DNA of 64,000 nt. Source: Parcubacteria bacterium C7867-005 (lineage in GTDB: Bacteria > Patescibacteriota > Minisyncoccia > Phycocordibacterales > Zambryskibacteraceae). The position numbers were made by a program, and so were the translations under genes. The DNA lies in assembly GCA_001189165.1 (NCBI GenBank), contig LFCO01000003.1:50769-114768 (forward strand). Direction: 5' to 3'. Shown one piece after another: positions 3,309 through 41,579 of this stretch. The notes beneath the pieces are model-generated. The model was not told where the DNA came from. It searched no databases and saw only the letters and a program-made list of their open reading frames with translations. Within the stretch, counting starts at the first letter, position 1, and each line of letters begins with the position of its first letter.

Positions 3309-4421
3309 CTAAATCCTCGGACCATTTGAGTGACCACTCATACTGGACAACATCCCTAAAGCAAACCACTCTGTCAAAAGATGTGATCCTCCATAGCTCA
3401 TAAACGGAAAAGTGATCCCCGTCACAGGCAAGACACCCATATTCATACCAGCATGGATGATGATGTGCACGGTGAACAAGATCGCCAGGCCTAAACCAAA
3501 AAGTGATTCGAAATTCGCTGGGGCAAATTGCGCACTATTCACAATTCTGAATAACAAGAGAATACACAGAAACAGGAGGAGGCATGTACCAACCAAACCC
3601 CATTCTTCAGCAAAGGAAGCGAAGATAAAGTCTGTCTGGAACTCTGGTAGAAACCTGAGTTTGGATTGACTGCCCTCTCCGATACCCTTACCAAAAACTT
3701 CTCCTGAACCAACGGCCACCGTGGATTGGTAGGCGTTGTATCCACTGCCGGTGATATTCGCAAGTGGGTGGAGGAAGTTAGCGATACGCGCTTTTTGATA
3801 TGGGGCGAAGACGAAGAACCACATTATCACGGTGACTATCGCACCGAGACCGATGACCAGTGCCAGATGCTTTTTGGATATACCAGAGACGAGGAGCATC
3901 CCAAACCAGATCGCAAAGATGATGACTGCCCCACCAAAATCGGGCTGTAAGAACACTAATAAAAAAACGATCAAAGCATAAATACCAGAGACAATGATGT
4001 GCTTGATATTCGCTATCTCTATATGTCTCCTGGAAAAATACTTGGCCAACATGAGAATGGTCACAAGCTTTGCAGGGTCAGATGGTTGAAAAGCAAAAAA
4101 GCCAAAATCAAACCAGCTTTGTGCTCCTTTGACCACTTGTCCGAGGCCAAACAAAAGCAAAAGTACGAAAACCATAATAAAAAATACAGTCATGAGGATT
4201 CTGGTTTGTCTTAGAAACCTCCAGTCGACGGCGCTCGCAAACACGAACGCCAACACAGATAAAAGTATCCAGATGGCTTGTTTAGAAAAAAATGAATGAT
4301 CGACGGAGAAAGAATTCATGGTGATCAAACCAAACAAAGATATGAGCATGGCTGGTACAAAGAGGTACCAATCGATCCGGATGCGCTCTCCGAATGTTTT
4401 AAAAAGTGAAACTAAACTCAT
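3309..4421 (-). CDS. SEDS-family peptidoglycan glycosyltransferase (FtsW/RodA/SpoVE)
   Basis: 370 aa polytopic membrane protein; C-terminal FtsW/RodA signature (EFQTDFIFASFAEEWG ... FPFMSYGGSHLL). Confidence 0.85.
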   Translation of the reverse strand: MSLVSLFKTFGERIRIDWYLFVPAMLISLFGLITMNSFSVDHSFFSKQAIWILLSVLAFVFASAVDWRFLRQTRILMTVFFIMVFVLLLLFGLGQVVKGAQSWFDFGFFAFQPSDPAKLVTILMLAKYFSRRHIEIANIKHIIVSGIYALIVFLLVFLQPDFGGAVIIFAIWFGMLLVSGISKKHLALVIGLGAIVTVIMWFFVFAPYQKARIANFLHPLANITGSGYNAYQSTVAVGSGEVFGKGIGEGSQSKLRFLPEFQTDFIFASFAEEWGLVGTCLLLFLCILLLFRIVNSAQFAPANFESLFGLGLAILFTVHIIIHAGMNMGVLPVTGITFPFMSYGGSHLLTEWFALGMLSSMSGHSNGPRI

Positions 4422-5227
4422 TTGATGAAACTTCGATCTGGTAAAATTCTGAGGAAAATTTCTGCTACATTTGTAGGATTAACAAAACCACTATTCCAAA
4501 CAAAAACCAACGGAGTAAATGCTCCTGGGTCTATGCTGTCTACGAATGTTTTCCCAGCTGTCACCACGTTACCACTTGGATCTGAAACCACCGCCACTAA
4601 CTCTATATTCGAAACTGCTGACAAAGATTTATTCAGCAGCCGGGCATCTAACCTCGCAGAAGTAGTCGCCCCTGAAAGTGTGATGTTTTCTATGGCTAAA
4701 TCAGGAGTGACGCGCTCATCTTTCTGCCAAACCAAAGTGTCTTCTGACCAAGCGAAGGTTGCTCTGGTGGGTATCGCATCTTCGAATACATACGGACCTT
4801 CGAATATGGCAAATGTAGAAGATTTGGGGACAAAAGTTTTACCGAGGATTGTCTTGATAGGGACAGAACTCGAGGCGTTAAAATATTTTATGGTGTATTC
4901 GGCTCTATTGATCATCCCATAAACATTTGGATTCTCTAGATTTATTAGTGTGACAAAAGTTTTATCACTAACTCTTATTAGCCTTGGATCGCCCTTGGAT
5001 ATCACTGGTAGAGATTCTGCAGGGCAGATCAAACTGCACGAACCACCACAATCCACTCCTGACTCATCCCCATTTCTTCTTTGGTCAAAACATGTTGGTT
5101 TTTGATGTAGAAAAAAATACAAAGGTAAACCAACTACGACAATCAAAAAGATGAGAACGATGGATAAAATAATCCTCTTCCTGCGTATAGACCATTGATT
5201 CATAAGAATAATTATAGCAAAAAACAC
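4418..5227 (-). CDS. Hypothetical membrane-anchored protein
   Basis: 269 aa, single N-terminal TM, Cys cluster (DCGGSCSLICP); 4-bp overlap with downstream SEDS gene suggests co-transcription. Confidence 0.45.
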   Translation of the reverse strand: MFFAIIILMNQWSIRRKRIILSIVLIFLIVVVGLPLYFFLHQKPTCFDQRRNGDESGVDCGGSCSLICPAESLPVISKGDPRLIRVSDKTFVTLINLENPNVYGMINRAEYTIKYFNASSSVPIKTILGKTFVPKSSTFAIFEGPYVFEDAIPTRATFAWSEDTLVWQKDERVTPDLAIENITLSGATTSARLDARLLNKSLSAVSNIELVAVVSDPSGNVVTAGKTFVDSIDPGAFTPLVFVWNSGFVNPTNVAEIFLRILPDRSFIK

Positions 5228-5260: not shown

Positions 5261-5370
5261 AGTTCTGGCGACTAGCTACTTTCCCCCATAGGAGTATCAT
5301 CGCCTCAACAAGGCTTAACTTCCGTGTTCGGAATGAGAACGGGTGTGACCCTTGCGACAAATCACCAGAA
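5261..5370 (-). rRNA. rrf: 5S ribosomal RNA
   Basis: Reverse complement reads gttctggtgatttgtcgcaagggtcacacccgttctcattccgaacacggaagttaagcc...cgccagaac with paired termini, matching canonical bacterial 5S loop motifs (CCGAACACGGAAGTTAAG). Confidence 0.85.
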
Positions 5371-5535
5371 CTAAACTTTCAAATACATACAAAAAAACCG
5401 ACTGGAAACATTTTATCTTTTTGTTTTGGAAAATAAACACCAAATGGTTTGATCCCATTTAGCAGAACAGAGCATCCACATCAGACAACTGCAAGCAGTG
5501 GACATCTGATATGGGTTTGTGATTTCTAAATTTCC

Positions 5536-8455
<2,920 letters not shown>

Positions 8456-8961
8456 TTAGGAAATTTAAAAACCACTTACTTTTACTTCGCTCACGAATAA
8501 ATTCGCGAGACGAAGGAGTGCCGAGTTTGCACCGTCCAGTGCAAACTCGACCTGCTCTGTTCTGCTAAATGAAATCAATCATTTAGCAATTTATTTTCCT
8601 GCCCACCTCCATGTGTTTAAAGACCCCAAAACACCCTCTCGCTTGCGCGAGAAAGTGTCCTGATTCCGTCTTGCGACGGAATCATGGAGACACACGTGGT
8701 GGAATTAAAATGTCAAAGTTCGGGCCCAAAAATGAAGACCTCCGCTTCTTTCAAAGCGGAGGTCTTTTGAGACCAAAGCTAGCCGTTTGGCTAGCTTTTT
8801 CGCTTTGAAGAATTAAGGTTTTTAAACATTTTTGGGTCTCCGTATCTTATCTTTTCTCTCTTTATCTGTCAACAAGCCCACCATTTCCCCTTTTTACCCC
8901 TTTTGGGTATATCCTCATGCTTATCCCTTGACGACATAATGACAGGGTATATGCTTAGGGT

Positions 8962-9837
8962 ATGAAGAAGAGTAGCAAGTACGGCATCCCCAGTCTCAAG
9001 CGAGAATTTCCTACTGATGAAGCCTGTCTGAATTTTATATATGATTCTCTACATTCACGTCTCTGTTCGTGCGGGGGTACATACTCCCTACTGAAAGGCC
9101 GAAGGCAGTTCCAATGTTCAAATTGCCGGTTTCAGATAGCTCCCTGTATTGGTACCATCTTTGAAAAATCACCCACTCCTCTCACCCTCTGGTTCCACGC
9201 AGTACTTGTATTCTCAAACGCCAAGAGTGGGATCTCTTCCAAGCAGATGCAGAGAGAATTAGAGGTTACCTACAAGTGCGCCTACCGGATGCTCAAGATG
9301 GTCCGGGAATCACTTTCTGATAATGGTGATCTGCTCAAGGGAGATGTAGAGGTAGATAGTTCAGTTTTCGGGGGCAAGTCTTACGGAGGAAAATACAATA
9401 AATATCAGAAACAGATGTTGAATAATAAGAGCATCGCTATTGCCGCTCTCGAGAGAGGGGGTAGGGCTCGAGTGAAAGTGATCCCGGCAGACAATACCCA
9501 GGTTCAGACAGACTTTGTGATTGATAACATCAATATGAAAGGCACGCGCCTACTGACAGACAAAACTTCTAGATTAGTTCGGGTTCATCGAATGGGGTAC
9601 GATCGCCACAGTGTGAACCATACGAAGCGAGAATACGCTCGAGGCGATATCCATATAAATACCGTAGAGACCTGGTGGGCCCATGTGAAGAGGAGTATCC
9701 TAGGAACCCATAAGAACGTCTCTAAGCGATACTTGCAGTCTTACTTGGACGCTTTCGCTTGGCACTATGGCATGAGGCACAACGACAGGCGCCGTTTCGA
9801 GGTTTTGATTGGTGCTGTATTGCGACCTTCAAAATAG
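8962..9837 (+). mobile_element. IS1595-family (ISXO2-like) DDE transposase gene
   Basis: 291 aa; N-terminal transposase zinc-ribbon (CSCGG...CSNCRF) followed by ISXO2-like DDE domain (LTLWFHAVLVFSNAKSGISSKQMQRELEVTYKCAYRMLKMVRE). Terminal inverted repeats could not be delimited by eye. Confidence 0.75.
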
Positions 9838-10619
9838 TGAGGAACTTCTGAAGATTCATTGTCCCCAGTATAACCTAGAAACATGCTTGCACTAGCAAAA
9901 TATGCTATAATCTCTGATGTTGATGGTATCAGCATCACGGGCGTTCCCAACTTCGTACTAGTCAACGAAGTAAAACGATAAAGAGATTGTGGACTGAGTG
10001 TGGGGTGTCTGGAAAATGCTAGACGTCCCAAAGGACGGCAGAGTAAGAAGACTTACTTTATCGGCCAGCTCCCCCGCCCTCAGTTCAGAACCTTGTTTAT
10101 CAAAGAACCCTTTATTCCCGATTTTCTTCGGTTGTGTTCAGTTAGGCAGCCTCTTGTTTCAAAAGTTTCCTCCCAAGAGACACGGAAGTCTCGGTGTTTG
10201 TGAGGAGGGCGCTTCGCTAACGGTCAGCGTCCCTCTTTCTCGGAAGAGAAGACCGTCAGTTTGTGGACTGAACAACACCACAAAAAATGTTTCAATGTGT
10301 CACTTCCTTCCGTCATTGGAGGAGCAAAAAGATCATCAGCGCAAGCGATTATGGTCTTAAGTGCTTCCCTATTGGCGGAGGTAAAAAGAAAAGAGCGGGT
10401 GGACCGCTCAGTTCTTCTAAGAAATCTTCTTAGTTTCTTTCTCAAGCATTCACCCCGAAAGGGGTGTTTGCTTTATGTATATTCTAGTCTCGGGCGATCC
10501 AGGTTCCTAGTAAAAACGTGGATAACCTGGGGAAGCCAGTATACGCCAATGATCCGGAGGGTCAAGCTCGCCTACCATTATGTGTTCAAGGGATAGGTGT
10601 GTATATCCTGTGGGTAACA

Positions 10620-10650
10620 AGAAACCCAAGGTTTTACCCTTGGGTTTACA
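10620..10650 (-). terminator. Putative terminator for GC-rich ORF 10669-11052
   Basis: Hairpin aaacccaagg-tttta-cccttgggttt followed by T-rich run on the minus strand. Confidence 0.4.
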
Positions 10651-10668
10651 CGTATACCGCCTACACCT

Positions 10669-11052
10669 TCAAGGATAGATCTTGGCGAAGATCTCCCTCT
10701 CGCTCGGAGTCATCGAAGCGAGCACTCGGGACCTAGCTGCCGTCTGGTTGTCGCCGAAGTCCACGACCGCTGTAGGCTCACTGACGAGGAAAACCGTTCC
10801 CCCATTCGTGAGCACTCGAACCATCGGCCCTTCATACTCGACCGAATCCGGCGCCGAGTCGATCAAGCGATCGAGGATCGAGCCGTCTTCGTAGAACCCG
10901 AGGAGCTCTTTCGCTCCCGCTTTCCGATCACGCCTGACGATCTCCATGAGATCCATCGGCATGAAGAACGGAGTGCGAAACGTCGGGTCAGCAATAACTC
11001 TACGGATGTTTCGCTCGAGCAGTTCGCGGTCCTTCTTACTGATTTCGCTCAC
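10669..11052 (-). CDS. Hypothetical protein, GC-rich (atypical composition)
   Basis: 127 aa ORF with markedly higher GC than flanking DNA; no recognisable motif. Confidence 0.4.
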   Translation of the reverse strand: MSEISKKDRELLERNIRRVIADPTFRTPFFMPMDLMEIVRRDRKAGAKELLGFYEDGSILDRLIDSAPDSVEYEGPMVRVLTNGGTVFLVSEPTAVVDFGDNQTAARSRVLASMTPSEREIFAKIYP

Positions 11053-11176
11053 GGTCTCCTCTCTATGGGGGTCAGCAGCAAATTCAAAAACTTAGTCCAG
11101 AAACAACCCTACTCTCTTCATTAAAAAAGTAAAGCTTCTGGACACCAATCCTTTTGTCTCCCAACCCACCCATGGT

Positions 11177-11199
11177 GTGTCAACCTGCCAGGTTGACAC
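11177..11199. repeat. 23-bp perfect palindrome GTGTCAACCTGCCAGGTTGACAC, copy 1 (REP-like)
   Basis: Exact sequence shared with copies at 13400 and 14080; followed by GGGG as in copy 3. Confidence 0.9.
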
Positions 11200-11240
11200 G
11201 GGGATGGTAGATAAATAAGAAACGCCCCATTTCAGGAGCG

Positions 11241-11729
11241 TTAGACAGAGAGGTCAGGGAGATGCTTGAACCTCACGAGAACAGCCTCCCCACTCTCGAC
11301 CAAGAAATTCATGGGGAGAAGCTGTTGGGCATGCAGGAAATCTGGTTCCCTGCCAGACCGACGGAAGTGCACCGCCGTGACCTTGCCATCACCAGATGAG
11401 CGATGGTCAGAATACATCAGTATGGCGGGACAATTGTGATCCGTGTCCAGACCATAAAGCTCTCCGTGACGACCGGTCAGGTGGGCGAACTCGAGAAAGA
11501 CCGTCTCGAACTCACCGTACGTCAACTCGATTCGCACCCCGTACTTGGCACACAGATACCAGACCACGTCTTCGAGCATCCATACTAGCATCAGAGCTTC
11601 GAGCTGATCCCGCGTGAGCAAAGCGATGTACTGTTCACGAGTGATCCCGCCTTCTCGCTTCGGTGTCTGCATTGTAGCCCCGGTTGAGTGAGATTGAATT
11701 GAGAGTTTGTACCTAAATCCATCCCCCAC
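11241..11729 (-). CDS. Hypothetical protein, GC-rich
   Basis: 162 aa ORF between palindrome copies 1 and 2; atypical GC; no recognisable motif. Confidence 0.4.
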   Translation of the reverse strand: MGDGFRYKLSIQSHSTGATMQTPKREGGITREQYIALLTRDQLEALMLVWMLEDVVWYLCAKYGVRIELTYGEFETVFLEFAHLTGRHGELYGLDTDHNCPAILMYSDHRSSGDGKVTAVHFRRSGREPDFLHAQQLLPMNFLVESGEAVLVRFKHLPDLSV

Positions 11730-11777
11730 CCTACCGATTTATAAAAAATTGTAAAGAAGAACACTCCCAAAGGAGTG

Positions 11778-12170
11778 CTAGAGAAAGAGTAGGAAACCAC
11801 TCGCATAAGCGACAGCCCACGTGGGCAAGAAAACCCACTTGGCGAACTTGATGTGCTGATCTCTGTAGAGCCACCTCTCGTATGGCCATCCCCACTTGGC
11901 ATGGTATCCCAAGTAGGCCTGGAAGAAAAAGAGGCCGATCGCGGAAAGAGACAGAACCGTGTGAAGCTGGACCCAGACAGAGACACGGGACAGACTCACA
12001 CCATCCTGACTGATCACCACCATCAGGTACGTCGCATACATGTCAGCGACGAAGCCAGATATGGCGAGCACGACATGTGAAGCCCAGCTCCGCCTGGCGA
12101 TGAAGAACGCCGTGAGGTATAGCGCGAGCGCCACGGTCATCCACAGTTCGATCTGATGTCTGACTTCCAT
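11778..12170 (-). CDS. Hypothetical integral membrane protein, GC-rich
   Basis: 130 aa, 4 predicted TM helices; atypical GC. Confidence 0.45.
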   Translation of the reverse strand: MEVRHQIELWMTVALALYLTAFFIARRSWASHVVLAISGFVADMYATYLMVVISQDGVSLSRVSVWVQLHTVLSLSAIGLFFFQAYLGYHAKWGWPYERWLYRDQHIKFAKWVFLPTWAVAYASGFLLFL

Positions 12171-12284
12171 CTGCCTAACCCCCGGTTGGTTGAATTGTTA
12201 GAACTCCGTCCACTACCCTACCTTCTTATCCCAAAAAGTAAAGCCATTATTTCAATCTTAGAATATTGAATGTCCCACAAAAGA

Positions 12285-13094
12285 CTACTCTTTATCAACA
12301 CAGGCTGCTTGATCAGTCGTGCAGGCAAGTTTTTTATTTTTGCCACATGCACCAGATCTTTTAAAGAGATTTTTTCCACATGCCAAGTAAGTATTCTCGT
12401 TATAATTCTCGACCGTCCAATTAAAAGTCATATTACTATTAATGAATGTCTTGCACTGCCTTTGGTCAAAATCTGTCATTAGGTCGTTTTCACAATCATC
12501 TAGAGCAGCGTAGTGCTTTGCAATAGTCGAAATTGTTTTGTTTTTAAGTTTTTTATTTTTGTTTTGAGCGGGTTCAGTTTTTGGTAAATAGTAGTTGGTT
12601 AATGTTAAATCAACCATTTTTCGAAGAAGTCTCTTACAATTATTTTCATTGACCTGCTCGAGCAAAGAGCTATTGCATTTTTTACTTTCATACTTATCTT
12701 TAACTTTTATATACTCAGGGTTTTTTTCATAATTTTCTCCACCAGAAAAGTGCTGATCAGTGTCCACTAAGGGCGAGAAAGGTCCGTTACGGATTGTTGG
12801 GGTACTTGGCACGTAATGTTTAAAACTATCCAGGGAAGAGTTGCGGTAATTATCTAGATACGTCGAAGAATTTCCGGGGGCAATTTTATTTGTGTACGGA
12901 TTAATATTTCCTGGATAACTCCAATTATTATAGGGGCTACTATCTGGATCTGAGCGATAGTGTGGTTCAACATAAGTGCCATTTTTCCTGTAATAACCCC
13001 TTACACTTACGGCTGCATCTACGACCATAGGTAGGTAGGAAAAAAACACCAGTAGAACCAAGCTTAGTAGAAAAGATCGTTTTAGTGATGTCAT
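12285..13094 (-). CDS. Hypothetical secreted Cys-containing protein
   Basis: 269 aa; N-terminal signal peptide (LLSLVLLVFFSYLPMVVDAAVS), Tyr/Asn/Pro-rich N-terminal half, Cys-rich C-terminus; AT-rich like host genome. Confidence 0.5.
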   Translation of the reverse strand: MTSLKRSFLLSLVLLVFFSYLPMVVDAAVSVRGYYRKNGTYVEPHYRSDPDSSPYNNWSYPGNINPYTNKIAPGNSSTYLDNYRNSSLDSFKHYVPSTPTIRNGPFSPLVDTDQHFSGGENYEKNPEYIKVKDKYESKKCNSSLLEQVNENNCKRLLRKMVDLTLTNYYLPKTEPAQNKNKKLKNKTISTIAKHYAALDDCENDLMTDFDQRQCKTFINSNMTFNWTVENYNENTYLACGKNLFKRSGACGKNKKLACTTDQAACVDKE

Positions 13095-13380
13095 ATTGTA
13101 AATACTGTTTATAATTTACTCTGTCAGGAAAATAAAGCAACTCTACCTGAATCAGCCCCCTGCAAGTCATACATGATCTCATTTATGACCACTTGTGCGT
13201 TAGAGGTAGTTGGAGAAAAAACTATTAGTACTAGAACAAAGAGAGTTCTAGTAGTTTGCACGTATATGGTATATCGCAGCTAGGCTAAGTATAAGAATGA
13301 AGATAAAGCTAAGGAAAAATTTGAAGAAAGCTTTATCGAAATATTTCATAACTTAATATAACCACAAAAACTCTGAGTAA

Positions 13381-14049
13381 TCAATTTCCATTCCCCACTG
13401 TGTCAACCTGCCAGGTTGACACAGTTGGATTGTCGAGAAATTTGATGAGCTCTTTTTGATATTTTTTCTCATTTGTATCAAACATCTCATAGAACAGCTC
13501 CTTGTTAACAACTGCAGAATGCATCCCTGACCCATAAAAATCTTTGAAACTTGACCATTCATAGTTTGATAAAAAATCTAGAGCCTTGTCTGTATTTATT
13601 GATGACGATTTCCACTTAGGAAACTTTAAATCTAAGGGGTTAATGTCTATGTAGACCGGGGCGTAGATAAACTGGCTATCATCAGTCATGCGAACGATCT
13701 TGGCACTGTTCTGAAATAAGTAACCGCTTCTTTTACCATTCTTAGTATTAAAATATTTTGTATATGCATTTCCCAATCTTTTCGTAAACTCCAAAATACC
13801 TCCCTCTTCTAACTCATAAATCAGTAAGTGGTAGTGATTGGGCAAAAGGCTCCATTTAAAGATCTCTACCAACTTCTTACGTTTCAAGTCATTGTGTCCT
13901 AGTGTATTCCCTTGTCTTGTTCTTATTTTTCCCTCTTTGTTATTAAGTAAAAACAAGTTTTCAACAAAGCGCAAATAATCTTTTCTATTCAGAAAGATGT
14001 TTCTTTTTTCTACTCCTCTATTAAAGACATGAGCAATATCACCTACCAT
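13381..14049 (-). mobile_element. IS200-like / REP-associated tyrosine transposase (RAYT-like, HUH Y1 family, COG1943)
   Basis: 222 aa; HUH motif LPNHYHLLI (compare MPDHVHLLV of IS200 TnpA), conserved upstream N-terminal block HVFNRGVEKRNIF...DYLRFVENL, downstream GYLFQNS...YIAPVYIDINPL (compare RAYT GHLWQGRY...YIHxNPV). The ORF as called reads through palindrome copy 2, so the true stop is probably earlier. Confidence 0.7.
13400..13422. repeat. 23-bp perfect palindrome GTGTCAACCTGCCAGGTTGACAC, copy 2
   Basis: Exact copy; extended here to a 29-bp palindrome (act...agt); lies at the 3' end of the RAYT-like gene. Confidence 0.9.
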
Positions 14050-14079
14050 TAACTCTAATTCTATTTTGTTGTGGCCCCC

Positions 14080-14102
14080 GTGTCAACCTGCCAGGTTGAC
14101 AC
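14080..14102. repeat. 23-bp perfect palindrome GTGTCAACCTGCCAGGTTGACAC, copy 3
   Basis: Exact copy, extended by CCCCC/GGGGG to a 33-bp palindrome; lies 30 bp upstream of the RAYT-like gene start. Confidence 0.9.
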
Positions 14103-14145
14103 GGGGGAACGGTGGTGCGTGTTAATTTTTTGTTTTCACACATAA

Positions 14146-14173
14146 CAAAACCACCCCGTGAGGGGTGGTTTTG
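14146..14173 (-). terminator. Rho-independent terminator (bidirectional-looking) after surface protein gene
   Basis: aaaaccacccc-gtga-ggggtggtttt hairpin with T-runs on both strands. Confidence 0.55.
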
Positions 14174-14232
14174 AAACTCTCTAAACTTTTATCCTAGAGC
14201 ACGAGGCTCGAGAGATAAAGAGATTAGATAAC

Positions 14233-16170
14233 TTATATCACGTTCATTGACACAGCTGGAGTCAAGAAGTTATTCAAGTTGAAGTTGTAGACGTTTGCAT
14301 GTGCATCGCCGCTATCACTATCCCACTTGATACCTGTCATGACAACCTGGATTATACCGTCAGCATCTGCTTCAAGAACAACGCTGGTGGTAAATCTTCG
14401 AGTTGTGTTCTGATCAACCTTGAATGATGTTGAAACATCATCAGAGTCAACTGAACCTGAAGTTGTAATCGAGCTTACAGTCGTAGAACCTGTTGTTGAC
14501 TGTGAAGTAGTAGCAAACGAGTTACCGTTTACACCTGCTGATGCCTGTGTAGAGGTTGCTACAACAGTATCCTTGTCAACCCAGAGGTCAGCGCCGAAGG
14601 CAGTGACGTCGAATGTGAAGGTAAATGTTGCTTGATCCTGTTCACCTGCATCATCAGCTACAAATGTCTTAACTCCTGTAGGAGTACCAACAAGGGCAAC
14701 TGAGATACCGTCAACGAAGAATGCTTGAGCCTCTCCAGCAATGTTGTCTGTTACTGAAATTGCATCGCCTTGTTCATCTTCAGCATCAATCAAGTGACCA
14801 CGAACAGTAGCAGTAAGCTTGTCACCAGAGGTGAAGGCACTTGCTTCTGTGTCGTTTACGTCAACTTTGATTGTGTAGGTTTCTGTATCACCTGCATCGA
14901 TGGTCATATCTAGATCATCGAATACTATGACTGAAGTACCAGTAGCTGAAGCTGATGGGCTTTCACTTCCGATCTCAGTGTTACCGTGGTAGAGGTAAAC
15001 AGTCTTTGCGATCTGGTTAACTGAACCAACTGTACCAGTTGAGGTTGCGAGAAGGACACCGATTTCATCAACCCAAGCGTCTGAATCATCTCCGGCTTCA
15101 AGCTCGAATTCGATGAGAGTGATACCGTTGGTATCGTTTGTATCATCTACTTCGTGAGAGAGAGCGTTTGGTGAATCATTTCCTTCGGTCAATTCAAGAG
15201 CGCCGGCTGAGACGTCTTCAAATGTCATAGTGACAGTGTCAGAGTCATCACCTGCTTCCTGATCAATACCTGCTCCGTCGATAGCGCGGATACCGTTATC
15301 TTCTACAGATACCAAGAAGTCCTGGTCTGTATCAGAACCATCGATGTTGTCTTGAGCTGTTACTTCAAGGGTGTACCTTGCTGTAGCATCTTCTTTGACA
15401 ACGTTATTTAGACCACCGAAACGGATGGTGTAGATGTCAGAACCTTCGTCTGACCAGTCATCTTCATCACCGGCGTTTATAGTAGCGATCTTTGTACTGT
15501 CTCTGTAAAGAGAGAGAGTATCGATGTAATCCCAAGGCTCATCACCTAGGGCTTGGTTTGTTGCGTCGAACTGGAAGTCAATACGCTGAACTGAAAGGTC
15601 AGAGTCTTCTGCATCGAATTCAAACGCCATAACCTTGACTGTCTGTCCTTCCTGTACATCTTCGTTAGAAGGTGAACCTAGAACATCGAAGTCAGTGATA
15701 TCTCCTTCCGCTCCGGGAGTAGAGATAGCGCCAGTTGAAGGTGTACCGGTTGAAGGTGTACCTGGAACTGAAGGCATAGATGAGTTAGCAGCTGCGCGAG
15801 ACTTTGGTCCCCAGTAACCTACAGCAGGAGCGATTCCTGAAGCTGCTTGCCACTTTGCGACTGCGTTCTTTGTAAGAGCACCGAAATAACCCTTTGCTAC
15901 GCCAACTGGCATAACAAGGTGTCCCTTGGATTCAAGGAGATTCTGAAGTGCGACAACTTCTGAACCAGAACTACCGAGGGTAAGGTCGGTGTTGAATGAT
16001 CCTGTTGTAGCTGCTGCTGAACTACCTCCCATAGCTGCGATTTGCGCCATGAGAAGATCGATCTTTGCCTGTAGATCTGAAGTGCTCTGAGCTCCTGCTG
16101 TAACAGCGAAGCTTAGGGCTGCGATAGATCCTGCACTGTAGGCAGCGATTCTTGCGATTGTTTTACTCAT
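14233..16170 (-). CDS. Secreted surface protein with peptidoglycan-binding domain and long acidic Asp/Thr/Ser-rich region
   Basis: 645 aa; signal peptide ending AGAQS, PG_binding_1-like segment (GSSGSEVVALQNLLESKGHL...YFGALTKNAVAKWQAASG), then about 450 aa of low-complexity D/T/S/G-rich sequence. Confidence 0.6.
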   Translation of the reverse strand: MSKTIARIAAYSAGSIAALSFAVTAGAQSTSDLQAKIDLLMAQIAAMGGSSAAATTGSFNTDLTLGSSGSEVVALQNLLESKGHLVMPVGVAKGYFGALTKNAVAKWQAASGIAPAVGYWGPKSRAAANSSMPSVPGTPSTGTPSTGAISTPGAEGDITDFDVLGSPSNEDVQEGQTVKVMAFEFDAEDSDLSVQRIDFQFDATNQALGDEPWDYIDTLSLYRDSTKIATINAGDEDDWSDEGSDIYTIRFGGLNNVVKEDATARYTLEVTAQDNIDGSDTDQDFLVSVEDNGIRAIDGAGIDQEAGDDSDTVTMTFEDVSAGALELTEGNDSPNALSHEVDDTNDTNGITLIEFELEAGDDSDAWVDEIGVLLATSTGTVGSVNQIAKTVYLYHGNTEIGSESPSASATGTSVIVFDDLDMTIDAGDTETYTIKVDVNDTEASAFTSGDKLTATVRGHLIDAEDEQGDAISVTDNIAGEAQAFFVDGISVALVGTPTGVKTFVADDAGEQDQATFTFTFDVTAFGADLWVDKDTVVATSTQASAGVNGNSFATTSQSTTGSTTVSSITTSGSVDSDDVSTSFKVDQNTTRRFTTSVVLEADADGIIQVVMTGIKWDSDSGDAHANVYNFNLNNFLTPAVSMNVI

Positions 16171-27979: not shown

Positions 27980-28966
27980 TTATTTGAGTACTTCCTTCAA
28001 ATCTAAAAACTGCTCTCTTATTTTATAAGTATCCCCATGTTTAAGTAGCCCCAGATACGAAGCTCTAGTTTCTTTAGATTGATTCGTTTTCAGATTCTTC
28101 AACACCCTCCTCTTAGTAGCCGTCCTTAGTATCCTGTGGGTCGGAAAGTGAATCCAACCGAGGAAATCTACTCCGGAAACAAGGGTTTTGATAGAGACCT
28201 TACTAGGGTGCAGTTCTAGCTTTAGTTTCTCCGATAGGAACACCTTCATAGACCCGAGAGTATTTGTTAACCCTGATTTATCTGGAGACAGAAGAACGAA
28301 ATCATCTGCATAGCGGATGTAGTACTTGATTTTCAGTTTATGCTTCACAAAGTGATCAAACTCGTTCATGTAGATATTGACCAAAAGTTGAGAGGTGAGG
28401 TTTCCCAGAGGTAGTCCCTTGCCTTCAGTGCTAGAGTTAAAGCTTTCTATCACTCTCTCCAGAAGATTGAGAGTGTCTTTGTCTTCTATGTATTTGGTAA
28501 GGATATTAAGCAAGATTTGGTGATCTATGGAGGCAAAGAATTTGCGCATATCGCACTTCAGTGTCCAAGAAGTTTTGGTGTTATTCTTTGAGATCTTGTA
28601 ACCAAAACTTCTGAACCTGTTCAGGGCCTTGTGTGTACCCTTATTCAAACGGCAGGAATATGAGTCATGGATGAACTTCTTGTCGAAGTATGGGTATAAG
28701 ACTCTGTATATAGCATGGTGGAGTAATCTGTCTCGAACTGATGCTTTGTGAATATTCCGAGGCTTGGGATCTGAGATGTTGAAGGCTTGATAATCTGAGT
28801 GACTGTATGTCTTGTTCAATAAGTCTTGATGGAGGTCAAATATATTTTCTGAAAGATTTAGGCTAAAGATGGCAACATCTTTTCTTTGTCTTTTACCACA
28901 AATGAATTCCTCCCATGCTTTGTATAAATTTTCTATTGATATGATACTCTGATAATTCATGAACAC
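27980..28966 (-). CDS. Diversity-generating retroelement (DGR) reverse transcriptase
   Basis: 328 aa; RT motifs incl. YADD (IRYADDFVLL) and the DGR-diagnostic [I/L]GxxxSQ box (GLPLGNLTSQLLVNIYMNEFDHF) replacing QGxxxSP; same size as phage BPP-1 bRT; adjacent to Avd and TR/VR. Confidence 0.85.
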   Translation of the reverse strand: MFMNYQSIISIENLYKAWEEFICGKRQRKDVAIFSLNLSENIFDLHQDLLNKTYSHSDYQAFNISDPKPRNIHKASVRDRLLHHAIYRVLYPYFDKKFIHDSYSCRLNKGTHKALNRFRSFGYKISKNNTKTSWTLKCDMRKFFASIDHQILLNILTKYIEDKDTLNLLERVIESFNSSTEGKGLPLGNLTSQLLVNIYMNEFDHFVKHKLKIKYYIRYADDFVLLSPDKSGLTNTLGSMKVFLSEKLKLELHPSKVSIKTLVSGVDFLGWIHFPTHRILRTATKRRVLKNLKTNQSKETRASYLGLLKHGDTYKIREQFLDLKEVLK

Positions 28967-40703: not shown

Positions 40704-41579
40704 ATGTTTAGTATGGGCACCGGAAGCAACGCCCTTTACCACCTCAGCAGGAGTATCAAGATGCCGAATGTGCCCATCAGGATCTTCAACATCGCGAGTA
40801 CCCAGGTGGATCGCGAGGAAGTTCGCAAGTGGCTCGATTTCATCGGGGCAGAAGGATACGAGATCCCCGAAGATGGTGCGGTCACCAACCCCGCATTGCT
40901 CATCGCTCTCGCTGGTCGTCGATGCTACAAGAGCTTCGTGCCGGGTCTCAACCCGAACGTCACGAAGATCCGCAAGGACATGGCGGACTACATCGACAAC
41001 ATCCTCGCGTCGGGCCATGGCTCAGTGCTCGAACACTCGGTCTACACCTTCGCGATCGAGAACGTGAGCCGAGTCTTCACCGGGGAGATGAATCGTCACC
41101 GTGCTGGATGGGCCATCTCGGAAGGTAGCATGCGCTACATCCGATTCACCGACATCGATTGGTGGATGCCGACTTCTCTCCAGGATTCCCCAGATGATTC
41201 GGTGGAGCTTCGGCTTCGCAAGCAACAGAGTCGAGACATCTTCACGGCGGCGTTCAAGATGCAAAGCCAGGCCTACTCGAGCTTGCTCGAGGTCTGGGAC
41301 ATCCCCGAAGGCCATCATGATTTCCACTACAAGAAGGTCGTGACTTCCTGCCTGCGTCGCATCGTCGGCATGGGTGTCGCCACAGGAGGAATCTGGACCG
41401 GCAACATCCGAGCCATCCGCCACGTCATCACCATGAGGGCTGATTCGGCGGCCGAGGAGGAGATCTTCTATGTCTTCTCAAACATCCTCAAGATGATGGC
41501 GGAGAAGGAGCCCATGCTCTTCGGTGACTTCAAGCAGAACGAGAGTGGCTCTTGGGTGCCTGAATACAGGAAGGTGTGA
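40704..41579 (+). CDS. thyX: Flavin-dependent thymidylate synthase ThyX
   Basis: 291 aa; ThyX signature RHRxxxxxxSxRY (NRHRAGWAISEGSMRYI); GC-rich. Confidence 0.85.
   Translation: MFSMGTGSNALYHLSRSIKMPNVPIRIFNIASTQVDREEVRKWLDFIGAEGYEIPEDGAVTNPALLIALAGRRCYKSFVPGLNPNVTKIRKDMADYIDNILASGHGSVLEHSVYTFAIENVSRVFTGEMNRHRAGWAISEGSMRYIRFTDIDWWMPTSLQDSPDDSVELRLRKQQSRDIFTAAFKMQSQAYSSLLEVWDIPEGHHDFHYKKVVTSCLRRIVGMGVATGGIWTGNIRAIRHVITMRADSAAEEEIFYVFSNILKMMAEKEPMLFGDFKQNESGSWVPEYRKV

Follow-up and report, generated by a model that had tools for sequence, protein, structure and literature searches.

A stretch of 64,000 nucleotides from Parcubacteria bacterium C7867-005 (contig LFCO01000003.1, positions 50,769 to 114,768; hereafter the window) contains three identical 23-bp palindromes, two of which stand at the ends of a gene for a transposase-like HUH protein of 222 residues. 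The question raised by this locus is what the palindromes are to the gene: the ends of a transposon, the repeats of a resident enzyme, or host sequences that the gene happens to use. The original prediction, made from the sequence, was of a module of repetitive extragenic palindromes (REP) and a REP-associated tyrosine transposase (RAYT), with the outermost palindrome marking the far end of a 2.2-kb cargo. The locus represents an unusual form of a known type of system, REP/RAYT-like, and not a transposon with cargo. In the reading that we consider probable, positions 13397-14107 are a module resembling the REPtrons and TIRtrons, in which a single-copy class-2 Y1 HUH gene lies between two cognate hairpins, and the third palindrome (copy 1) is a scattered solo hairpin.

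The 23-mer GTGTCAACCTGCCAGGTTGACAC was found at exactly three sites in the whole window (11177-11199, 13400-13422 and 14080-14102, copies 1 to 3), as predicted, and no fourth site was present in the window even with up to three mismatches, none being expected from shuffled sequences. Hairpin counts for C7867-005 cover the 64-kb window, and the dispersal counts given below come from other genomes. GTGTCAACCTGCCAGGTTGACAC is palindromic save for its central base, with arms of 11 nt around a C. The extensions described for two of the copies were confirmed, copy 2 forming a palindrome of 29 nt (13397-13425) and copy 3 one of 33 nt (14075-14107). Folded as single-stranded DNA, these two gave -15.6 kcal/mol (z -7.1) and -19.3 kcal/mol (z -5.9), respectively, and copy 1 folded more weakly (-10.9 kcal/mol, z -2.7). 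The palindromes had no Rfam match, either at the gathering threshold or at E up to 1. Copies 2 and 3 had been said to flank the gene immediately. Copy 3 in fact ends 30 nt upstream of the ATG, and copy 2 overlaps the final 14 codons, so that the C-terminal VSTWQVDT of the protein is the translated palindrome. Copy 1 lies 2.2 kb from copy 2, the distance originally given. The features of the locus are as follows.

14075..14107, no strand: upstream hairpin (copy 3), CCCCC-GTGTCAACCTG-C-CAGGTTGACAC-GGGGG, its gene-proximal arm with TTGACA on the gene strand
14058..14086, minus strand: promoter-like site, TTGACA-17 nt-TAGAAT, 11/12 matches in a promoter scan, function putative
13381..14049, minus strand: gene for the 222-aa putative class-2 Y1 HUH enzyme (RAYT/TIRYT-like), from motifs and fold match
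13397..13425, no strand: downstream hairpin (copy 2), 29-nt palindrome over the last codons of the HUH gene
11177..11199, no strand: solo hairpin (copy 1), core only with poorly pairing flanks, intergenic and inside a GC-rich island

The open reading frame (ORF) at 13381-14049 on the minus strand encodes 222 aa and contains LPNHYHLLI, which had been taken for an IS200/RAYT-type HUH motif. In an alignment with 36 homologues the HuH motif is N71-H72-Y73-H74, with H72 and H74 invariant, and the Y motif is Y133-I-D-I-N137-P (YIDINP; family consensus YIDLNP), with Y133, D135 and N137 invariant; a tail motif, W165-S-S, consists of an invariant W165 and a near-invariant S166-S167. A phmmer search of the PDB aligned LPNHYHL with LPEHMHC and VYIDINP with DYIYINP of E. 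coli TnpAREP (4ER8), so that H72/H74 fall on H59/H61 and Y133 on the catalytic Y115, which locates the catalytic tyrosine that the prediction had left to be found. The active site of the TnpAREP structure consists of H59/H61, Y115 and N119 (PMC3479197). An AlphaFold (AF2) model of the 222-aa protein, with a mean predicted local distance difference test (pLDDT) score of 84.5 and a helical C-terminal extension, was compared with the PDB by Foldseek. The top match was 4ER8_A (E 6.5e-4; template modelling (TM) score 0.58 by target), followed by IS608, ISDra2, IS200 and Sulfolobus TnpA. With the HuH and Y---NP motifs and this top fold match, the assignment of LPNHYHLLI was borne out. Choosing between RAYT and IS200 from the sequence alone was attempted and dropped, since the profile search against the PDB was ambiguous (ISDra2 E 0.019, 4ER8 E 0.053); the fold search and the motif signature told more.

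Quentin et al. (2018) use Y---NP to define their class 2, the RAYT-like proteins (PMC6006769). The protein has the HuH motif, the Y---NP motif and the Y1-transposase fold of class-2 TnpAY1 and lies below the curated profile thresholds; it is a divergent member of that class. Motifs and model together support the ORF as encoding a Y1 HUH enzyme of the RAYT-like class. Set against Table 1 of PMC6006769, the protein carries the signature of subclass 2.1, namely NHYH, FQ (in GYLFQN), YIDINP and the SS tail, and the combination of NHYH, FQ, YIxLNP and SS with a length of ~220 aa fits subclass 2.1 (Bertels group 1, named TIRYT by Di Nocera et al.) best, as judged from sequence. No C-terminal helix-turn-helix (HTH) domain (Bac_DnaA_C, HTH_23 or HTH_28) was found in a Pfam scan, which gave only a weak Y1_Tnp match.

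Homologues form 722 clusters at 90% identity, and those clusters that carry a source name belong to Parcubacteria, Nomurabacteria, Paceibacterota or Minisyncoccota. The 222-aa protein matches the entry of Parcubacteria bacterium C7867-005 at 100% identity, and its nearest relative outside the source genome is 69% identical. The wider superfamily comprises 5277 representative clusters at E <= 1e-3 and 61 at E <= 1e-30. Many homologues end in STWQVDT or STCEVDE. One HUH gene is present in the 64-kb window, and one in each genome's set of loci, a count that covers the loci only. Searched against PHROG, the HUH protein gave only weak matches of unknown function.

Evidence that the palindrome acts as a hairpin comes from covariation. 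The flanks of 60 exact core copies vary and yet remain complementary, with a mean of 3.9 contiguous pairs against 0.71 +/- 0.17 when partners were shuffled, and the covariation score was 0.241 against 0.099, a value reached in 0/500 shuffles. Of the four positions adjoining the core, each shows 3-5 pair types, and pairing is kept in 93, 90, 71 and 69% of copies. Some of the flank variation is lineage-specific (AAGG/CCTT in one Zambryskibacteria genome, AAACT/AGTTT in Nomurabacteria), and some occurs between copies within one genome. At locus L059 (loci are cited by L numbers) a compensated change is found within the core itself, from CCTG/CAGG to CGTG/CACG. The element thus consists of an invariant 10-bp apical stem on a covarying basal stem. 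A stem that covaries outside the invariant 21-nt core indicates a hairpin, not merely a double-stranded palindrome.

The association of gene and hairpin is regular. Cognate hairpins flank the HUH gene in the window (copies 2 and 3) and in all homologous loci examined; at loci found through the protein alone (L049, L051, L053 and L054), one variant of the palindrome lies upstream and another over the 3' end of the gene. Among distinct homologous loci, 18/18 have a homologous hairpin at the same upstream place. In the 18 distinct upstream regions the gene-proximal arm reads TTGAC(A/C/G) 28-32 nt before the start codon, and 16-18 nt further on stands a -10-like hexamer (TAGAAT, TATAAT, TAAAAT or TGnGAAAAT), followed by 4-9 nt to the ATG. 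A promoter scan of the window identified TTGACA-17-TAGAAT as the top site of the region (11/12 matches), with the -35 box inside the hairpin arm and the -10 hexamer ending 8 nt before the ATG. That distance implies a leaderless mRNA for the HUH gene, and we predict from the sequence that its transcript is leaderless and that its -35 box lies within the upstream hairpin. As regards the central base of the palindrome and gene orientation, C, G and occasionally T were seen, with no clear rule.

Distant homologues have altered hairpins (the loop is GCG in L051, and the arms are GTCCAACC in L053), and a paralogous subfamily, 41% identical, carries a different palindrome in L057. Different hairpins with different HUH subfamilies are what one would expect if the enzyme acts on its own hairpin as substrate. 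The L057 protein of this second subfamily (216 aa; hairpin region 5870-6010) passes the Pfam Y1_Tnp threshold, and its gene lies in the opposite orientation at the same intergenic site. Its palindrome, TTATCCACAGTCCAAGG-N5-CCTTGGACTGTGGATAA, gives rise to three DnaA-box-like TTATCCACA motifs within ~80 nt.

Dispersal was assessed by scanning one genome per species with TGTCAACCTGNCAGGTTGACA, together with metagenomes and viral contigs. The genome scan returned 46 stretches, ~25 of the genomes being Parcubacteria with 1-8 exact copies each; a few matches (Anaerolineae, an alphaproteobacterium) are probably unrelated or mis-binned. Metagenomes added 47 further stretches, and viral contigs gave 0 matches. 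A viral origin was rejected on the absence of matches in viral contigs and the weakness of the PHROG matches. The core is identical across Zambryski-, Nomura-, Kaiserbacteria and others. The prediction had called the module unusual for this small AT-rich genome; it is no one-off there, gene family (722 clusters) and hairpin both being widespread in Parcubacteria. Further copies were found dispersed in related genomes, in a REPtron-like layout.

The 81 distinct copies divide into 21 that flank HUH genes, 49 that are intergenic and 11 inside ORFs of at least 200 aa (~1 in 7 intragenic). Intergenic copies lie between unidirectional (24), convergent (13) or divergent (3) genes, a bias towards the first two that REPs share (PMC3733652). 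Eleven of the intergenic copies are within 10 nt of a stop codon, so that the extended stem often takes in the stop codon. Copies within genes are in-frame, mostly read VSTW/CQVDT and fall in linkers; their hosts are asparagine synthase (AsnB), ArgRS, CysRS, BipA, a P-type ATPase, two reverse-transcriptase genes and a large surface protein. Intragenic REPs have likewise been reported, some of them in tRNA synthetase genes (PMC3733652). The ArgRS copy is common to genomes with ~78% identical ArgRS DNA, and a 50-nt block around the palindrome is 100% identical.

This identical ArgRS block (L014, ~6447-6496, against L098, reverse strand) stands out in a gene in which, elsewhere, about every second synonymous site differs. 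In Parcubacteria the linker that follows 'LLEKA' is hypervariable, and palindromes are encoded in it time and again (L014 6420-6500, L098, L075, L059 ~4080-4150 and L058 ~11290-11360). Some have the VSTWQVDT core or its compensated variant VSTWHVDT, and in many orthologues AAGGTCNGACCTT doublets read QGLTL or SQGQTL. Coding palindromes appear to have a hot spot in the ArgRS linker. The window itself encodes a 328-aa reverse transcriptase (27980-28966, minus strand; RVT_1), orthologous to the reverse-transcriptase genes of other genomes that have an in-frame palindrome at two different positions (L022, L031).

The comparison of relatives for presence or absence, which the prediction had suggested, was possible at the window site. 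Two relatives with FtsK 78% identical (L056 and L057) keep the window gene order of S6-SSB-S18, EF-P, RecA, FtsK, a gene of ~255-300 aa and a PG_binding protein. In L056 the interval from the PG_binding gene terminator to a conserved 33-aa mini-ORF contains neither HUH gene nor palindrome, and one close relative thus lacks the HUH module (13397-14107) at the orthologous position. In L057 the other HUH subfamily occupies this position, in reversed orientation. Module presence at this site is therefore variable. Aligned with the empty site in L056, the window resumes orthologous sequence (TGGGGA...) directly after copy 2. Three genomes share the 33-aa hydrophobic mini-ORF (MKYFDKAFFKFF...ILSL...R.NY; window 13248-13349, minus strand) as a conserved feature downstream of their PG_binding gene, and its counterparts (L056 ~4905-5005, L057 ~5750-5853) mark the ancestral flank of the HUH insertion. 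Over the PG_binding gene terminator, at 14142-14248 on the minus strand, a sub-threshold Rfam match to Phe_leader (36 vs 55 bits) is probably spurious.

Elsewhere the module is probably a long-term resident. Several Zambryskibacteria have it between SMC and RNase R, where one alignment at 73-78% identity spans flank, hairpin and gene, and this continuity argues for long residence and vertical descent in Zambryskibacteria. At the same site L021 keeps one solo hairpin and L020 none; some solo copies may therefore be remnants of recombination between flanking copies. The distant genomes have the module between housekeeping genes that are unrelated to these (ThrRS/DnaE, OTCase/trigger factor, Obg/GatB and RNase H/acetyltransferase).

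Known systems resemble the module in different respects. It shares with REPtrons (E. coli yafM/4ER8; TnpAY1 subclasses 2.2, 2.4 and 2.5; Bertels groups 2-4) a single-copy Y---NP Y1 HUH gene between its own hairpin repeats, dispersed hairpins mainly behind convergent or same-direction genes, the best structural match, and repeats within genes that include tRNA synthetase genes (PMC3733652 for REPs). It differs in having a perfect two-fold symmetric palindrome where a REP has a 5' GT[AG]G guide and a bulge, 1-8 exact core copies per genome where there are tens to hundreds of extragenic REPs, and a core identical across genera where REPs are species-specific, with altered hairpins in distant homologues (L051, L053, L059 and L057). 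The protein is also ~60 aa longer, with a helical tail, and falls far under the NCBIfam equivalog cut-off, and the -35 box is embedded in the hairpin of a gene whose mRNA is predicted to be leaderless. Compared with the vertically inherited REPtron locus, the module is stable at SMC / RNase R in Zambryskibacteria, occupies other sites in distant genomes and is absent from a close relative.

TIRtrons, which belong to TIRYT (TnpAY1 subclass 2.1), are tyrosine transposase genes between inverted repeats, some of them self-complementary and repeated in the genome (PMC3733652, PMC6006769). Here the likeness lies in NH[YF]H, FQ in place of WE/WQ, Y[IV]xLNP, the SS tail motif, a length of ~220-240 aa and the low copy number of the flanking repeats. 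On the other side, the terminal inverted repeat (TIR) consensus GGGGWSAS is absent, the G-runs at copies 1 and 3 not fitting GGGG[AT][CG]A[CG], and the C-terminal HTH (Bac_DnaA_C, HTH_23 or HTH_28) of that group was not detected. A strong hairpin is the rule in the Parcubacteria loci, whereas Quentin et al. saw no REP-like hairpins in subclass 2.1; their taxonomic survey did not include bacteria of the candidate phyla radiation (CPR) (PMC6006769). Rickettsia palindromic elements (RPE) and intragenic REPs offer a further parallel, palindromic repeats having been inserted in-frame, within a reduced genome, into loops or linkers of functional housekeeping genes; the RPEs differ in length (100-150 nt against ~27-31 nt) and phylum, and the hairpin described here is linked to an identifiable HUH gene. 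A literature search, incomplete in its journal coverage, found no paper linking RAYTs or REPINs with CPR/Patescibacteria.

By analogy with these systems, the protein would bind the hairpin formed on single-stranded DNA and cut near its foot through a 5'-phosphotyrosine link at Y133, with a metal held by H72, H74 and N137, before the strands are rejoined. Through such cutting and rejoining, hairpins would be copied, moved or maintained, at times together with the gene. Recombination between flanking copies could remove the gene, with a solo hairpin as the remnant, or turn it round, and hairpins at the 3' ends of genes may have a further role at the RNA level, in stabilising transcripts or terminating them. 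With its -35 box in the hairpin and a predicted leaderless mRNA, the gene would have its transcription shut off by protein binding or hairpin extrusion, as a form of autoregulation. Binding, cleavage and mobility, that is, the action of the HUH enzyme on the hairpin in single-stranded DNA, are likewise proposed here by analogy.

Several results weigh against a module of the REPtron/TIRtron kind. The proposed profile search did return Y1_Tnp and RAYT matches, and the fold is TnpAREP-like, but both scores are under the curated cut-offs: Pfam Y1_Tnp gave E 3e-3 and 18 bits (gathering threshold, GA, 23) and NCBIfam REP_Tyr_transpos E 2e-5 and 24.4 bits (cut-off 80). The hairpin has no conserved 5' GT[AG]G guide and no bulge, the flanks outside the 21-nt core being variable and self-complementary. 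Both features are essential for E. coli TnpAREP (PMC3479197), and recognition must therefore differ. A copy number of 1-8 per genome is very low for a REP system. The REP/RAYT reading thus stands as to Y1 HUH class, own hairpins and dispersal, and the system fails two defining features of canonical REPs, the GT[AG]G foot and high copy number. No clean filled-versus-empty pair was found for any solo hairpin. In pairwise DNA comparisons, in-gene copies replace linkers of similar length (+0 to +21 nt) and are not clean insertions, so that no target site or duplication is definable; the ArgRS orthologues compared are at most 78% identical and hypervariable in the linker. Finally, the invariance of the core across genera, unlike the species-specific REPs, could reflect a host function of the hairpin that is independent of the enzyme.

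Among the alternatives, an autonomous minimal insertion sequence (IS) like IS200, consisting of hairpin, tnpA and hairpin (~700-740 bp) and moving as a unit via single-stranded DNA, with solo hairpins as footprints of excision or recombination, accounts for a good deal and is still unlikely. Its size would be near that of IS200 and its fold the same, the gene neighbourhood is different in every distant genome, the orthologous site in L056 is empty, and the solo hairpin of L021 sits exactly at the module site of its relatives. IS200/IS605 TnpA proteins (subclass 1.1; IS608, ISDra2, IS200) likewise combine the Y1 HUH fold with hairpins at both ends. However, they have Y---Q where this protein has the class-2 Y---NP (YIDINP), and they are multicopy and near-identical where the present gene is single-copy and anciently diverged: one copy was found per window or locus set, near-identical copies were seen neither within nor between genomes, and the best outside match is the 69% one. 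Several Zambryskibacteria moreover keep the module at SMC / RNase R, where gene and flanks have diverged to an equal extent (73-78% identity). There is no tnpB, viral contigs gave no matches, and the hairpins outnumber the genes, many being in-frame in essential genes, where excision of 700 bp is an unlikely history. The prediction had used the identical end hairpins to argue against IS200/IS605, an argument that is weak because the end hairpins of IS608 are themselves near-identical.

About as tentative is a broader proposal, in which the hairpin would be more than selfish DNA: an ancient genomic signal kept by the enzyme, under nucleotide-level constraint or concerted evolution across the order-level Parcubacteria radiation, even in-frame in essential genes (the identical 50-nt ArgRS block would be an instance), and the whole a domesticated system for processing single-stranded DNA with a host role. 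If true, that role might be at replication forks or in transcript 3'-end formation, and several families of coding palindromes would have settled systematically in CPR housekeeping genes, the ArgRS linker alone having at least three kinds.

It is improbable that the hairpin is mainly a host element (a bidirectional terminator, mRNA stabiliser, protein-binding operator or -35 module) which the HUH gene merely uses and does not spread. The enrichment of copies shortly after stop codons and in convergent or unidirectional gene pairs, their rarity between divergent genes, the A-tract and T-tract that flank Nomurabacteria-type stems, the TTGACA in both arms and the invariance of the core across genera would all suit such an element. 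Most copies, however, lack a T-tract, and the true terminators nearby are ordinary GC hairpins with T-runs. About ten copies are in-frame in ORFs, where a terminator would do harm. The hairpin is found on both sides of the HUH gene in every locus, and HUH subfamilies have their own different hairpins (L051, L053 and L057), as for an enzyme and its substrate.

The surroundings of copy 1 bear on the cargo. A GC-rich block at ~10600-12250 (53-60% GC against about 43%) contains three orphan genes of 127, 162 and 130 aa (10669-12243, minus strand), the 130-aa product having a weak match to HsmA (TIGR03987). Each gene is preceded by a CTTTAC-N17-TAGGGT box, found three times in the window against an expectation of 0.02, and a terminator-like hairpin is also present at the two island genes above copy 1. 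The island resembles foreign DNA equipped with a promoter type of its own. Copy 1 has the terminator of the 162-aa gene on one side and the promoter-like box of the 127-aa gene on the other, which places it between the first and second island genes, so that the island continues on both sides of it. An AT-rich gene for a 269-aa secreted protein and the conserved mini-ORF are compositional and evolutionary units other than the island. A composite element at 11177-14102, with outer hairpins mobilising a 2.2-kb cargo of three genes, could draw on the identity of the hairpins at 11177 and 13400/14080 and on the lack of synteny with relatives on the low-coordinate side of 13248, but it is highly implausible, as copy 1 is inside the island and not at its edge, a third gene and third promoter-like box lie beyond it, the supposed cargo mixes half of a GC-rich island with an AT-rich gene, the mini-ORF common to L056 and L057 is ancestral flank, no homologue of a cargo protein was found near palindromes at ~100 other loci, and other genomes normally have solo copies. 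Copy 1 fits best as a solo hairpin like any other.

REP/RAYT systems provide the chief example of transposases that stay in bacterial genomes for long periods as single-copy residents, and what they do is still debated. The same layout is found here in CPR/Patescibacteria, whose genomes are tiny and tightly packed, with the hairpin tolerated inside aminoacyl-tRNA synthetase and GTPase genes. What is unusual is the perfect two-fold symmetry of the hairpin, the invariance of its core across genera, the embedded promoter and the occurrence in CPR bacteria. The module offers a compact and testable enzyme-substrate pair, a marker of genome dynamics in uncultured lineages and a test case for parasite or host tool. 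For annotation, these genes carry translated palindromes that should be recognised as such, namely "STWQVDT" tails at the C-terminus and "VSTCQVDT" extensions at the N-terminus.

Beyond the island, the window has an IS1595 transposase gene at 8962-9837, directly after rRNA genes. The ~830 nt between it and the island (9838-10668) contain no convincing ORF and no Rfam match, and an odd 32-aa gene is called there in the JGI annotation. A second IS1595 at 40704-41579, suspected from its equal ORF length, was rejected and is ThyX. No 16S gene is present within the window. The 23S and 5S rRNA genes (5263-8458, minus strand) are flanked by a 47-nt inverted repeat (5428-5474 / 8553-8599), which is probably a processing stem.

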